A stretch of DNA of 15,945 bases, taken from the IMG/VR virus record IMGVR_UViG_2698536395_000013; one strand, given 5' to 3'. Position numbers and translations under genes: made by a program. Below the pieces are notes generated by a model. That model made no database searches and was not told where the DNA came from. It saw only the letters and a program-made list of their open reading frames with translations. How positions within the stretch are numbered: position 1 is the first letter of the stretch; each line of letters begins with the position of its first letter. Positions 1-7,186 of this stretch are shown here, one piece after another. Source of the DNA: a virus. Taxonomy: Duplodnaviria; Heunggongvirae; Uroviricota; Caudoviricetes.

Positions 1-212
1 CATTCTGCTTTGGTATACGTTTTACCGAGCATGATGTCTTTTCCTGTATGCCCGTGACATACAGTCCATACACCAACAATATCTTTGTATGGTATGTAGC
101 TGACACCTTCCAGACCATCGTTACCACTTGGGCCAGTGATTAACACTGATGCTATAGCAATTGCTCCGCCACCAATAGCAGCAGCAACGGCTTTTCGTAA
201 TGATGGAGGCAT
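1..212 (-). CDS. rrrD: SAR-type endolysin (phage 21 R / DLP12 RrrD-like lysozyme), N-terminal part only; gene continues past window start
   Basis: Minus-strand ATG at 212..210 translates to [70 protein letters not shown]: Gly/Ala-rich signal-anchor segment followed by the start of a lysozyme domain. Start overlaps the holin stop (TAATG). Family assignment is from memory. Confidence 0.75.
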
Positions 213-427
213 TATTCACCTCTCGCAGCCTTGCGCTTATCTTCTTTAATCTTGAAATAAAGGTTTGTCAGGTACGTCAGCAGGCCAAATACCAGGCTAC
301 CCAGCACACCTATTGCTGCCCACTGTGAGGGCGTGACTTTATCGAGCAGCTGTAAAAACCAGTAACCGGCACTACCTGCTGAGGTGCCATAGGCGACACC
401 CGTTGTTAACTTATCCATGGATTTCAT
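212..427 (-). CDS. essD: class II holin / pinholin (phage 21 S-like), 71 aa
   Basis: Translation [71 protein letters not shown] has two TM segments and a charged C-terminus. Dual-start motif M-K-S-M, SD GAGGTGG upstream of the ATG at 427. The longer track ORF (to 472) has no SD and is rejected. Confidence 0.85.
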
Positions 428-554
428 AACCCCACCTCGCAGACAAAGCGGGTGTAAATTGAGGGAATACAACGTATCGCAAAAAAGCAGAAACGTAACA
501 GACTCGGAGTCAGTGAATAACTCAGGTATTGGGTTATCAGCTAATATCGAGACT

Positions 555-588
555 CAAAAAATGGAAAAACCCGCTCGACGGCGGGTTT
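555..588 (-). terminator. intrinsic terminator on minus strand upstream of the lysis genes (candidate tR'-like late-operon terminator)
   Basis: Perfect 8-bp stem AAACCCGC/GCGGGTTT (plus 567-574 and 581-588) with a 6-nt loop, followed on the minus strand by UUCCAUUUUUU. Position about 100 nt upstream of the holin start matches lambdoid pR'-tR' layout. Confidence 0.45.
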
Positions 589-1015
589 AAGCTGTGTGAC
601 GAAGTAACCACTCTTAACAGCATAACCAATTTTTTACGTACGTAAACCACTAAATGATATTTGCGAGAATGCTACCGAGTATTGAAAACACCACTACAAA
701 TACATAAACAAATCTCAACAAATAACCAACAAATAATTTCCAGCGTTATTTTTAGCCGATTTAAATTGAACCTTCAAATTATAGGGCACTTATAAATAAC
801 AGCCATTAATATAAATTGGCTAATAGATTTATTTTTATTCAGCCAAGAGCCATGAATAGGATTCGATAGAAAAAGTTCAGATAAAAATAGAGATCTACTT
901 CACAAATCAAATGAGAAACCAAAACTTACATCTTGAAATAATCACATTGATTAGATGAATATTTATCGCGCAGTGACATCATTTTTTAATAATAGTTCAA
1001 AAAAAAGGGCTCACG

Positions 1016-2098
1016 ATGAAAAAATTAACAGTGGCAATTTCTGCTGTAGCTGCATCAGTACTGATGGCGATGTCTGCTCAGGCAGCTGAAATTTATAATA
1101 AAGACAGTAACAAGCTGGATCTGTACGGGAAAGTTAATGCTAAGCACTACTTCTCCTCTAATGATGCAGATGATGGTGATACTACTTATGCCCGTCTTGG
1201 CTTCAAAGGTGAAACCCAAATCAACGATCAACTGACTGGTTTCGGTCAGTGGGAATATGAATTCAAAGGCAACCGCGCTGAATCTCAAGGTTCCTCCAAA
1301 GATAAAACCCGTCTTGCCTTCGCTGGCCTGAAATTCGGTGACTACGGCTCCATCGATTATGGCCGTAACTACGGTGTAGCATACGATATTGGTGCATGGA
1401 CCGACGTTCTGCCAGAATTCGGTGGCGATACCTGGACCCAAACAGATGTATTCATGACTGGTCGCACCACAGGTGTTGCAACTTATCGTAACAATGACTT
1501 CTTTGGTCTGGTTGATGGTCTGAACTTTGCTGCTCAGTATCAGGGTAAAAATGACCGTACTGACGTAACTCAAGCTAATGGTGATGGTTTCGGTTTCTCC
1601 ACTACTTATGAGTATGAAGGTTTCGGCGTAGGTGCAACCTATGCTAAATCTGATCGCACTAATAATCAGGTTATCTACGGTAACAACAGCCTGAATGCAT
1701 CTGGTCAAAATGCTGAAGTATGGGCAGCTGGTCTGAAATATGATGCGAACAACATCTATCTGGCTACTACCTATTCTGAAACCCAAAACATGACTGTTTT
1801 TGGTAAAAACCATATTGCCAACAAAGCACAAAACTTCGAAGTAGTTGCACAATATCAGTTCGACTTCGGTCTGCGTCCGTCCGTTGCTTATCTGCAATCT
1901 AAAGGGAAAGACTTGGGTGCTTGGGGTGATCAGGACCTGGTTGAATATATTGATGTAGGTGCAACCTATTACTTCAACAAAAATATGTCCACTTTTGTTG
2001 ACTACAAAATCAACCTGATTGATAAGAGCGATTTCACGAAAGCATCTGGCGTTGCTACCGATGATATCGTTGCTGTAGGTATGGTTTACCAGTTCTAA
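1016..2098 (+). CDS. nmpC: OmpC/OmpF-family general porin (NmpC/OmpD-like), 360 aa, intact
   Basis: Signal peptide [23 protein letters not shown] then [16 protein letters not shown], typical porin beta-strand periodicity, and a C-terminal ...VGMVYQF ending in Phe. AAAGGG SD before the ATG. Lies antisense between Q and the holin, as nmpC does in DLP12. Confidence 0.9.
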
Positions 2099-2104
2099 TT
2101 TGAT

Positions 2105-2149
2105 TACTAAAACATATGTTGTGGGAGGCTTTGCCTCCCCAACATATAA
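2105..2149 (-). terminator. hairpin plus U-tract on minus strand between Q and the antisense porin gene (possible terminator; also stabilises the 3' end of the porin mRNA on plus)
   Basis: Imperfect 15-bp stem ATATGTTGGGGAGG/CCTCCCACAACATAT around a CAAAG loop, followed on the minus strand by GUUUUAGUAAU. On the plus strand the same hairpin sits just 3' of the porin stop with no T-run. Confidence 0.3.
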
Positions 2150-2286
2150 GTGGCTCCCTCAAGCCACTTCCTTTAGAAGCACAACCTTGCTTCTAACTAT
2201 ATAAACCTTCTGTTATATATTACCCTTTATTTTTGGGGGCGTTTCAACGCCCCATTCTTAATAATTTTTAGTAAACAATTGGCATA

Positions 2287-2670
2287 TTAATTAGAGTTAT
2301 TAACAACGATATCCATCTCTAACCGGATATCTAATGCCATTAACATCCCTTCAATTATGCCCTCAGCCTTCTGTAACCTTTTCCCGATATAACCATCAGA
2401 GCAGCAATGCTTACCTGCCAGTGACATGAATGTCATACCGACTACATAATAATCTACTAATAAATCGTGCAAATCGCTGTTGTTCTTTTTCAGACGGGCC
2501 ATGCACCCGCAAATGATCATCGCGTCATCGTCACAACATTGCGGGCGAGATTTTACTTTTGAAGTAATTAATCCCTTAAAACCGGCGGCAATGGACGACC
2601 AGGTCACATCTTCATGATTATTAGCCGCCCACGCTCCCCAACGCTCAAGAACCATCTGAATATCACGCAT
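2287..2670 (-). CDS. quuD: late-gene antiterminator Q (phage 82 / DLP12 QuuD type), 127 aa
   Basis: Translation [34 protein letters not shown]...[16 protein letters not shown]...[13 protein letters not shown] with Cys clusters typical of 82-type Q. GGAG SD 9 nt before the ATG at 2670. The 5-codon extension in the track (MWSKL) is rejected. Confidence 0.85.
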
Positions 2671-2755
2671 CAACTTACTCCACAAAAATCAGACCAGAAC
2701 GCCAATTACAAGCAAAAATCAACGAAACAGTATTAGTTGATTGTTATCTCTGACT

Positions 2756-2896
2756 TCATACTCCTGCTCCTGTCAGGGTTTTGGCGTAATTCTTCAGTAT
2801 TCGGTAATCGGTCAAAACAGAACCGGGGAAACGATATAAGCGCAGACGCCCCCAGCGGTGGCGAAGACGTTCTGCCATATAAAACTCAAACATCAT
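2756..2896 (-). CDS. ylcG: small DLP12-type protein YlcG, 46 aa
   Basis: Not in the ORF track (under 60 aa). Translation [46 protein letters not shown]. Its ATG overlaps the rusA stop (ATGA), fitting the rusA-ylcG-Q order of DLP12. Confidence 0.6.
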
Positions 2897-4381: not shown

Positions 4382-4783
4382 TTATTTTAACTCATAGATC
4401 AGACAGTCAACGATTTCTAAACCATTTACCATAGAATTAGAAACGCGAACTTTACCATCGTTGACTCTAGCAAATCCTTTTAACATTTTATAAACAAAAG
4501 CTGAATCCCCCTTAGCCTCAATTGCTTCTAATGGTATCGGCTTATACTTTTTTGATATGCTATTTCTATTTATCTCACTGATTTTTCTATATATTTCTGC
4601 CGGCCCACGTTCTGAGAAGTCACTGATAACTAAAATATATCTCCAAGATAGATCTGGGTAATAAAACCACATTGCAGCATCAATAGTTAAATTCTGTAAC
4701 TTGAGTTTTTTTAACAAAAATTGACCTGAGAATTCCATATCTTTTGTCAACTCTCTGCCGATTACCAGTGTGCTTTTACCCAT
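4382..4783 (-). CDS. hypothetical protein, 133 aa, partner of the upstream HEPN gene
   Basis: ORF with GGAG SD 9 nt before the ATG at 4783; overlaps the HEPN stop by 22 nt, so the two genes are likely co-translated. AT-rich coding sequence. No motif recognised. Confidence 0.55.
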   Translation of the reverse strand: MGKSTLVIGRELTKDMEFSGQFLLKKLKLQNLTIDAAMWFYYPDLSWRYILVISDFSERGPAEIYRKISEINRNSISKKYKPIPLEAIEAKGDSAFVYKMLKGFARVNDGKVRVSNSMVNGLEIVDCLIYELK

Positions 4784-5178
4784 TTCAAAACTCCAGAATT
4801 TTGGTCACCTACAGCATCAAACAATTGTTCGGCCATAGCTTTACTTATGTTATTGTCGTATCTAAATTGCTCGCTCCAGTCTTTAACGACCGACCAGTTA
4901 ATCTCCAACGAAACATCATTTTTTGCGTCAGCAATCAAAATTTGATGTAAGTTGGCAATTTTGAGAAGTTGCGACAAATCATGAGTATATGAATCATTTA
5001 CGACTTTTTTGTTTGGAAACTCATGTTGTAAAAATGACTTGGCAATACAGGCCTTCAATGCACATTCAACTGCATACCCACAAAGATAATATGCACCATG
5101 AAAAAAGCCATGATCAAGCAAGCATTTGGCCTCATTAAGCCTAGTGTCAGATAATGCTTCAAGGTCGTTTTTATTCAT
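4762..5178 (-). CDS. HEPN-domain protein, 138 aa
   Basis: Translation ...EAKCLLDHGFFHGAYYLCGYAVECALKACIAKSFLQHEFPNKKVVNDSYTHDLSQLLKIANL... matches the classic HEPN helical pattern (A.E.ALKA ... tHDL..Ll). No canonical R-x4-6-H is visible before the His, so catalytic status is uncertain. Confidence 0.65.
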   Translation of the reverse strand: MNKNDLEALSDTRLNEAKCLLDHGFFHGAYYLCGYAVECALKACIAKSFLQHEFPNKKVVNDSYTHDLSQLLKIANLHQILIADAKNDVSLEINWSVVKDWSEQFRYDNNISKAMAEQLFDAVGDQNSGVLKWVKAHW

Positions 5179-5477: not shown

Positions 5478-6221
5478 TTACAGCCGTTCAGAACGTAAAT
5501 GCGTCAATACTCGACTCCACTTATCATCCTGCCACGGCCGGAATTTTACATGTGCCGTTTCTCTGGCAAGGATTGCCTGTGCCTTATTGAGTATCCGGGG
5601 ATATTCTTGTTCGATTGAAGTGAAGCGACCGGCTTCGCGGTGTTCTGCTACCTGAAGAAGCGGAGTGACGTTTTGGCAAGCGGTTAACATTGTGTCACTT
5701 GCCCGCCATAACCAAGCAAGTGTGCAAAGTTCGTTATCAGTGAATTGTTTTGTGATTGGGGATTGTTGAATTTCTCGATCGAGAATATCCAGCACCCAGC
5801 GGCGGAATTCTTTGGCCACAGGAGTGCGGGCGAACATGGCGATCAGATGGGCGCCACGGAGGGAGAAAATGCGAGTCTTCTTACGATAATTTCCTGAGGT
5901 CGTTGATTCGACGACCTGAGACATTCCGTCAGTAAACTCATCAATATTTTTGTTGTAGATGTCGGTTACTGCTTTGGTGCTGGCATATTTTAATGCTGCC
6001 GCCAATTCTTTGCTGGTAAACCAGATCTGGTTGTTGTGATTTATAGGAGTGAATTTTACATCGCGGAATGCGAGCTGAGTGACCATAGCGATAATCTCGT
6101 TTTGAATTTGAGCTATCACCACCGACGACGCCAATCGACTGGTGGTGGACTGTGCAAGGTTGGCGTAACCGGTCAAAACGAAATCCGGCGCTTCCGAAGA
6201 AGCCCTCACACAGCCCACCAT
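5478..6221 (-). CDS. Bro-N domain protein (Roi / antirepressor-like), about 247 aa; start uncertain
   Basis: Translation contains FRDVKFTPINHNNQIWFTSKELAAALKYASTKAVTDIYNKNIDEF, which resembles the Bro-N DNA-binding domain. Start chosen at MVGCV (ATG 6221) because the longer track ORF (to 6323) would read through an intrinsic terminator at 6249-6270. A later start at MVTQ (6089) is possible. Confidence 0.55.
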   Translation of the reverse strand: MVGCVRASSEAPDFVLTGYANLAQSTTSRLASSVVIAQIQNEIIAMVTQLAFRDVKFTPINHNNQIWFTSKELAAALKYASTKAVTDIYNKNIDEFTDGMSQVVESTTSGNYRKKTRIFSLRGAHLIAMFARTPVAKEFRRWVLDILDREIQQSPITKQFTDNELCTLAWLWRASDTMLTACQNVTPLLQVAEHREAGRFTSIEQEYPRILNKAQAILARETAHVKFRPWQDDKWSRVLTHLRSERL

Positions 6222-6248
6222 AATTTTTGTGTAGACGTGCACTGCGCA

Positions 6249-6270
6249 TAAAAAAACCGCGAACGCGGTT
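6249..6270 (-). terminator. intrinsic terminator on minus strand (nin-region tR-like) immediately upstream of the Bro-N gene
   Basis: 6-bp stem AACCGC/GCGGUU with a 4-nt loop, followed on the minus strand by UUUUUUA (plus 6249-6254 is TAAAAAA). Confidence 0.5.
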
Positions 6271-6330
6271 ATGCGTCGTTTTGATGTCCGGGACGCCAAT
6301 CCCGTGTGCCGATTTTGCGGCAACGCACAG

Positions 6331-6360
6331 AATATAGCGCCGGATAAATAATGTCGTCAA
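6331..6360 (-). promoter_or_regulatory. candidate sigma70 promoter on minus strand feeding the terminator/Bro-N leader
   Basis: Minus-strand TTGACG (6360..6355), 18-nt spacer, TATATT (6336..6331). The spacer is 1 nt longer than optimal. Sequence-only prediction. Confidence 0.3.
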
Positions 6361-6838: not shown

Positions 6839-7186
6839 ATGACTATCAAAGCGACTGACATAGAGATTCTTCATCGTTATGCTGAAGGGGTAATGGAACG
6901 TTCTAACCATCATGCAAAAAATGTTGGTGCAGCCGCTCTTACATTGCTAGGAGGTGTTATCTGGAAAGCCCTGCCCGGATCAATCGAGATAAGAACGTAT
7001 AACGGAAGTCTTGCAAATATGGTGTGGTGGCAAAGCGAAAGAACATTAAAAAATTATGCAATCTCATACAACCATAATTCATGTGAAATTGAAATGAGAG
7101 ATGAATCAGTCAAAGGTGCTGTATTATTTAGCATTTCCAACGAAACCACTCCAGAAAAAATATTATCACAGCTTTCTGAGCTTTAA
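6839..7186 (+). CDS. hypothetical protein, 115 aa, solitary plus-strand gene inside the minus-strand early-right operon
   Basis: ORF MTIKATDIEILHRYAEGVMERSNHHAKNVGAAALTLLGGVIWKALPGSIEIRTYNGSLANMVWWQSERTLKNY.... Very AT-rich gene and upstream region. Extended -10 TGcTATATT at 6777-6785. Followed by a hairpin at 7192-7209. No family recognised. Confidence 0.55.
   Translation: MTIKATDIEILHRYAEGVMERSNHHAKNVGAAALTLLGGVIWKALPGSIEIRTYNGSLANMVWWQSERTLKNYAISYNHNSCEIEMRDESVKGAVLFSISNETTPEKILSQLSEL

Follow-up and report, generated by a model that had tools for sequence, protein, structure and literature searches.

Porins of lambdoid phages have long been described, as Lc in phage PA-2 and as NmpC in the K-12 prophage qsr'/DLP12. 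Lc is said to be a major outer-membrane protein of PA-2 lysogens, a finding attributed to Schnaitman in 1975, and PA-2 itself reportedly uses OmpC as its receptor. The RNA IpeX is said to follow the porin stop codon directly, as Castillo-Keller, Vuong and Misra reportedly found in 2006. IpeX is described as 167 nt long, as part of the porin transcript made from the phage porin promoter, and as lowering OmpC and OmpF (PMC12197685, PMC8065619, PMC3333887). Its mechanism, worked out on the K-12 and PA-2 sequences, is only partly understood. NmpC protein has been seen by proteomics in the wild strains STEC PMK5 and UPEC CFT073 (PMC9731836, PMC12890032); in CFT073 it is favoured at 37 °C, and its expression depends strongly on temperature (PMC12890032). 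As to late transcription, the pR'-to-tR' distance in Sakai was determined by dRNA-seq and Term-seq as 258 nt (PMC7547250).

We analysed a 15,945-nucleotide stretch of viral DNA (IMG/VR record IMGVR_UViG_2698536395_000013; hereafter the window), which represents the early/regulatory half of a DLP12-type lambdoid prophage. On its minus strand, the pR-operon genes end in quuD and are followed by the lysis genes, which begin with essD; a porin gene lies between the two groups on the plus strand (table 1). This gene is very probably an intact Lc/NmpC porin that forms a self-contained cargo cassette in a DLP12-type prophage at argU, occupying the gap between Q and pR' and staying outside the late transcript. 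The 1.7 kb from 600 to 2300 is 100% identical to many EHEC O26/O103/O111 chromosomes. In strain E2865, whose genome matches fully, the prophage adjoins intD and a tRNA-Arg gene, which is the DLP12 site; given the IS elements inside its head genes, the E2865 prophage may be defective. The quuD protein aligns with solved Q21 structures (E=7.6e-07) and is 78% identical to Q of the 933W/Sakai-type Stx phages, and the nucleotide sequence of the gene is 100% identical to K-12 quuD.

Table 1. Features of the porin locus, with positions counted from the first nucleotide of the window.
Feature	Position	Strand	Basis
essD (P21-type holin, first late gene)	212-427	-	PF04971, E=2e-35, and annotation
Hairpin and U-tract about 24-52 nt past the pR' start, candidate tR'	567..588	-	scan and homology
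pR' homologue: -35 TTTACG (646-641), -10 TATGCT (624-619), start near 612	612..646	-	homology to Sakai Sp5 and phi345
AT-rich control region, 29% GC	651..1015		95-97% identical to K-12 and PA-2
CRP-like site TGTGA-N6-TCTCT	887..907	-	CRP site in PA-2 record; 100% conserved
Candidate porin promoter TTGAAA-N18-GAATAT	933..962	+	hand-picked from sequence
Sigma-E-like promoter TGAACT...TCACT, start near 966	972..1000	-	inferred from published primer coordinates
Porin CDS, Lc/NmpC type, 360 aa, intact	1016..2098	+	ORF, Pfam, alignment to solved porins
Signal peptide, 23 codons	1016..1084	+	maps to sig_peptide of PA-2 J02580, amino acids identical
Equivalent of the K-12/phage 434B IS5 site, after NmpC codon 346; uninterrupted here	2040..2041	+	
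Structured 3' UTR, IpeX homologue	2099..2265	+	95.8% identity to K-12/PA-2, fold
First hairpin past porin stop, candidate terminator for transcripts leaving quuD	2117..2148	-	fold and sequence
Terminator-like hairpin GGGGCGTTTCAACGCCCC and U-rich tail (hairpin 2236-2253)	2236..2269	+	terminator scan
quuD (Q, Q21-family antiterminator, 127 aa)	2287-2670	-	PF06530, E=3.5e-53

The original prediction, an intact full-length OmpC-family porin flanked by Q and the holin and encoded on the other strand, stood up well: ORF, Pfam and signal peptide evidence agree, and re-translation from the ATG start ran through 360 codons with no internal stop or frameshift. The span had been given as 1016-2149. The coding sequence, on the plus strand, ends at 2098; a span reaching to 2149 also includes the UTR's first hairpin, and the transcription unit more likely extends to about 2265. 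Residues 29-360 of the protein match PF00267 (Porin_1) over the full length of the profile (positions 1-337 of 337, E=3.4e-153), and the full mature length can be aligned to the solved structures of OmpC, OmpF, PhoE and OmpK36 (E 1e-120 to 1e-136). The Sec signal peptide has an AXA cleavage site, and the mature protein begins with AEIYNKD, lining up there with the starts of mature OmpC, OmpF and PhoE. Residues 133-138 read PEFGGD, the motif of the L3 constriction loop in general porins, and the C-terminus is VYQF, ending in the aromatic residue that serves general porins as an assembly signal. From the end-to-end alignment to solved porins we infer a sixteen-strand trimeric beta-barrel fold, and a pore-forming function in the outer membrane is plausible.

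The gene is the already known Lc/NmpC porin of lambdoid phages. Its product is 91.1% identical in amino acid sequence to PA-2 Lc and to K-12 NmpC with IS5 removed. Window positions 1-2800 are collinear with K-12 DLP12 minus IS5 (93.4% nucleotide identity over 2.8 kb), and the window is likewise collinear with the PA-2 lc record (92.7%; the alignments span 2.3-2.8 kb). The locus has the position between Q and S-R-Rz on the opposite strand, the collinear flanks and the IpeX-type UTR with terminator of the Lc/NmpC cassette. K-12 nmpC is indeed disrupted by an IS element, as had been stated with the prediction: IS5 sits after codon 346. Comparison with this insertion point, proposed at the time as a check, revealed that the equivalent position, 2040/2041, is continuous here, with CGAA in place of the CTAA target that is duplicated in K-12.

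What the earlier reading overlooked was the structured 3' UTR and the membership of the PA-2 Lc family, in which intact copies are very common. Of 5426 complete E. coli genomes, about 2500 contain a full-length match, in most cases labelled an intact porin; at least 1000 contigs encode the exact protein, and 36 sequenced phages carry the porin. Intact copies are the rule, not the exception, and the window copy is ordinary. IS elements also seem to have inactivated the porin gene repeatedly (ISVsa5 and IS1, and IS5 in K-12 and phage 434B). In NZ_CP077567.1 and NZ_CP077491.1 (O111:H11), the allele of the window is split by the IS4-like ISVsa5, and a related allele is split by IS1 in NZ_CP053594.1, a B-strain derivative.

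Comparison with K-12 and PA-2 revealed that the two halves of the gene differ in divergence. Codons 1-180 carry near-exclusively synonymous differences (dS ~0.2); codons 181-360 have a dS of ~1.05 and contain all the indels. At the nucleotide level, 1556-2098 (+) is only 79% identical to K-12 and PA-2, against 95-100% in the flanks. The amino acid changes fall at positions where OmpC, OmpF and PhoE likewise vary and carry indels, and which align as external loops. The 3' half was probably recombined in from a distant allele of the same family, and it may reflect selection by phages or antibodies that recognize external loops. Over the whole gene, dN/dS against K-12 and PA-2 is ~0.10 (0.03 over the first 180 codons), which argues that the protein is under purifying selection.

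The 188 nt from the porin stop to the convergent quuD stop are 95.8% identical to the sequences downstream of K-12 nmpC and PA-2 lc, although the adjoining 3' half of the ORF is far less conserved. Its predicted fold contains four or five hairpins (MFE -67.3 kcal/mol, z = -10). Counting 167 nt from 2099 leads to about 2265, within the U-tract of the terminator-like hairpin. The identity, together with the fit of this length to the U-tract, identifies the UTR as IpeX, and the hairpin is likely the end of the porin/IpeX transcript, ahead of quuD. An Rfam search of the window returned no family for the 3' UTR (IpeX) or the pR' leader, the only matches being C4, isrK and c4-a1b1 elsewhere. The recently described prophage sRNA svsR was also considered and rejected, as it is unrelated to the porin locus. 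On the minus strand, the first hairpin past the porin stop (2148-2117) is followed by GUUUUAG here and by CUUUUUCG in K-12, and may stop transcripts leaving quuD.

Upstream of the porin, a consensus promoter scan of the plus strand between 650 and 1015 revealed no sigma-70-like site for the gene. The candidate promoter that we picked by hand would set the CRP-like site near -72, and the porin probably uses a CRP-assisted promoter. The PA-2 record of 1986 holds another 'CRP site', corresponding to 592-612, which we rejected as a porin regulator because it is a half-site only and falls exactly on the opening 21 nt of the predicted pR' transcript. These nucleotides are kept in 933W-type phages and SfII, and the site is more likely part of a Q-loading or pause region. 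The control region of the DLP12 lysis operon has been studied as an amplicon, whose range is given as '-121 to +650' in PMC7918800, citing Rueggeberg 2015. Its primers map to 1088->1069 and ~304-323, and the fragment (1088->~304) reaches only 73 nt into the porin ORF, all the rest being on the holin side. This lends independent support to a late promoter beyond the porin. Primers and range together point to an RpoE-dependent start near 966, directed toward the lysis genes. The sigma-E-like promoter and the porin 5' UTR overlap on opposite strands, and this promoter stands back to back with the candidate one for the porin.

The original prediction also held that the porin is necessarily crossed antisense by late transcription from pR'. 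Here the prediction failed, since the pR' homologue, at 647->565 on the minus strand, reads away from the gene. This segment is homologous to the one directly after Q in Stx phages, for which phi345 annotates a 'Promoter' and a 'Terminator'. Its Sakai Sp5 counterpart, TTTACG-16-TATCAT, lies 258 nt upstream of a strong terminator. This is the mapped pR'-tR' distance (PMC7547250), and by homology we assign the segment at 647->565 as the putative pR'. The segment is 100% identical to K-12, and the conserved start region within it (600-618) occurs nowhere else in the window. A consensus scan of the minus strand from 2286 to 650 likewise revealed no promoter-like site between Q and the porin. Sakai Q aligns to 2672->2338 and the Sakai pR' segment to 647->565; the two are 88 nt apart in Sakai and 1690 nt apart here. 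Homology to the Sakai phage is lost at 2338 and regained at 647, which leaves the porin cassette in the space between Q and pR', outside the late transcript. The late transcript is predicted to start near 612 and to read into essD.

Further observations concern the two edges of the cassette. The homology of QuuD to 933W-type Q stops about 17 codons short of the QuuD stop (window 2287-2337, minus strand), and QuuD, with 127 aa against 144 aa for 933W-type Q, is 17 residues shorter. A left edge of the cargo insertion inside the 3' end of Q would fit both the lost homology and the shorter length. At the other side, 565-647 (-) is homologous to the beginning of the transcript made from pR' in Stx phages, which is the precursor of StxS. 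The corresponding Sakai hairpin, with U7, lies at +24 to +52 of the 258-nt transcript and so is read through there. In the window, the 588-567 hairpin is the only terminator-like element ahead of essD. We assign it as tR' provisionally, because its Sakai homologue is evidently read through without Q. Within the holin leader, 16 nt (474-489) are present here and in PA-2 and absent from K-12 DLP12. A tRNA scan of the window found none, so there is no block of tRNA genes of the kind found in Stx phages.

The model behind the original prediction placed the porin downstream of pR', in the position of stx, with Q-antiterminated transcription crossing it antisense toward the holin. It could draw on the fact that pR' directly follows Q in lambda and Stx phages (PMC7547250), and on the richness in hairpins of 2286-2100, as would be expected of a pR'-tR' segment. 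These hairpins, however, lie in 2099-2286, which is the porin's own 3' UTR, and the minus strand from 2286 to 650 offers no promoter-like site. The sole homologue of the pR' promoter and leader is the 647-565 segment shared with K-12, the break in Q homology from 2338 to 647 places the cassette in the gap between Q and pR', and SfII has the same layout with a different antisense cargo. We therefore regard crossing by the late transcript as highly improbable and favour a porin cassette upstream of pR'. The only candidate for transcription that crosses the porin antisense is read-through of the early pR operon past quuD, which would meet the hairpins of IpeX in reverse complement. A search of the pL operon against Pfam and PHROGs revealed nothing recognizable as an N-type antiterminator.

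The identity of the gene and its activity each invite another explanation. Taken literally, the RefSeq naming would make the gene the host chromosomal ompC and not phage cargo, and PGAP labels it 'ompC: porin OmpC' in most genomes. The chance of this is vanishingly small: in other genomes the genuine ompC and ompF align to no more than a third of this gene, at 73% nucleotide identity, and the gene sits in a prophage between quuD and essD. Its product is 62-65% identical to K-12 OmpC, OmpF and PhoE (63.6% for OmpC), as opposed to 91.1% for Lc/NmpC, so that 'ompC' is a family label and does not denote orthology. On the 63.6% identity and the prophage synteny, we rejected orthology to the ompC locus. 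In EHEC and other E. coli, the label can mislead porin-based typing, work on phage receptors and conclusions about antibiotic permeability. Alternatively, this Lc/NmpC gene might be intact but quiescent in the lysogen, either through H-NS acting on the AT-rich upstream DNA or because an activating condition is missing, and contribute little to the outer membrane. We consider this unlikely, although the upstream region has only 29% GC, the consensus scan found no promoter for the porin, expression in UPEC is strongly temperature dependent, and nmpC is termed a 'quiescent' porin of laboratory strains in the literature, with reference to Prilipov 1998. Silence in K-12 and B strains is explained by the IS5 and IS1 insertions, and NmpC protein is found in wild STEC PMK5 and UPEC CFT073. 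The dN/dS of ~0.1 argues for ongoing selection on the protein, and PA-2 lysogens are said to make Lc in major amounts. We conclude that the gene is real, intact and probably functional, serving as a lysogenic-conversion porin. The original suggestion that it may be functional is plausible from dN/dS and from the NmpC protein of wild STEC and UPEC (PMC9731836, PMC12890032). The 29% GC DNA upstream could be silenced by H-NS, or be temperature- or CRP-dependent.

The following scheme takes integrity, homology, synteny, UTR fold and the position of the pR' homologue from the window, and draws on the Lc, NmpC and IpeX literature for expression in this strain, repression of OmpC and OmpF, and phage exclusion. 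The cassette, ~1.7 kb in length (roughly 650-2337), would consist of the AT-rich control region, the porin ORF and the IpeX 3' UTR with its own terminator. Host RNA polymerase would transcribe it in the lysogen, independently of the lytic programme. Judging from its family, the precursor would be exported and form a trimeric general-diffusion porin of 16 strands, and the IpeX part of the transcript would, as for the published RNA, lower OmpC and OmpF post-transcriptionally. The major porins of the host would then be partly replaced by the phage porin, and this shift would alter permeability, surface antigenicity and the range of porin-dependent phages and colicins that attack the cell. If OmpC is the receptor of PA-2, as reported, the shift would act as superinfection exclusion. 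The Q-dependent late transcript would run from near 612 into essD, away from the porin.

A wider reading of the locus is more speculative, and we put it forward tentatively, as something that may well prove wrong. The gap between Q and pR' might be a recurrent cargo slot, filled by porin and IpeX here and by two unrelated antisense ORFs in SfII, which would keep conversion genes out of the late transcript. The IpeX hairpins might have a dual role: on the plus strand as a trans-acting RNA and porin terminator, and on the minus strand through the last hairpin and U-tract, which would end Q transcripts and shield the porin. The sigma-E start at ~966, back to back with the porin promoter, might link envelope stress, lysis and porin supply. 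Whatever the fate of this wider reading, the corrected map matters for models of expression, as the porin should be neither coupled to nor opposed by Q-dependent late transcription and the promoters that serve the lysis genes are located beyond it. What is known of the Lc/NmpC/IpeX system is unchanged by these results.

Elsewhere in the window we noticed further features. The Rfam matches to the C4 antisense RNA (82.5 bits), isrK (64.1 bits) and the c4 a1/b1 target lie at 6138-6337 (-), and directly downstream of them is a Bro-N/P22_AR_C antirepressor-like gene (5478-6086, -). Together these are an RNA-controlled antirepressor module of the P1/P7 or Gifsy type in the nin region. At 4382-5178 (-), a gene for a HEPN-domain protein (138 aa) overlaps a 133-aa ORF without known function (phrog_5737, phrog_5760), and the two genes may together form a toxin or defence cargo. 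Another likely cargo gene is a 115-aa ORF (6839-7186, +) that belongs to the VCH_CASS14 integron-cassette protein family and is oriented opposite to the pR operon.

With the chromosomal porins OmpC, OmpF and PhoE (PF00267), the window porin shares family, length, type of signal peptide, PEFGGD and the C-terminal YQF; it differs from them in its 62-65% identity, its location in a prophage and the lack of the ompC/ompF upstream region. Relative to IpeX of K-12 and PA-2, the putatively active version of the window differs at 8 of 189 aligned positions, and several of these eight differences fall in a bulge, the loop or the flank of the first hairpin. Shigella phage SfII (KC736978.1, 35266-37807) has Q, two antisense ORFs, the same pR'-like module and then the holin. 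Its two cargo ORFs have no annotated function, and the larger is without a Pfam match. The stx genes of Stx phages resemble the porin in being accessory genes in the lambdoid Q-to-S interval. They lie downstream of pR'/tR', co-oriented with the late genes and dependent on Q, whereas the porin, upstream of pR', runs in the other direction and has signals of its own. A stx-like placement inside the Q-dependent late transcript was therefore rejected, as the porin is upstream of both the pR' homologue and the 588-567 hairpin.

The closest relatives are the two described porin loci. K-12 DLP12 (qsr') shares prophage type and the argU/intD integration site with the window, and its Q-to-holin region is collinear, with quuD and the pR' segment identical throughout. 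In K-12, IS5 replaces the last 19 residues of NmpC, including the C-terminal Phe, whereas the window copy is uninterrupted. In PA-2, Lc (gene lc, GenBank J02580; Blasband, Marcotte & Schnaitman 1986) lies in the same place and direction as the window porin and has an identical signal peptide, the first 180 residues differ by one or two substitutions, the CRP-site sequences upstream are the same, and the structured UTR downstream is 95.8% identical. Compared with Lc, the window porin is five residues shorter, and its residues 181-360 come from a far more divergent allele.
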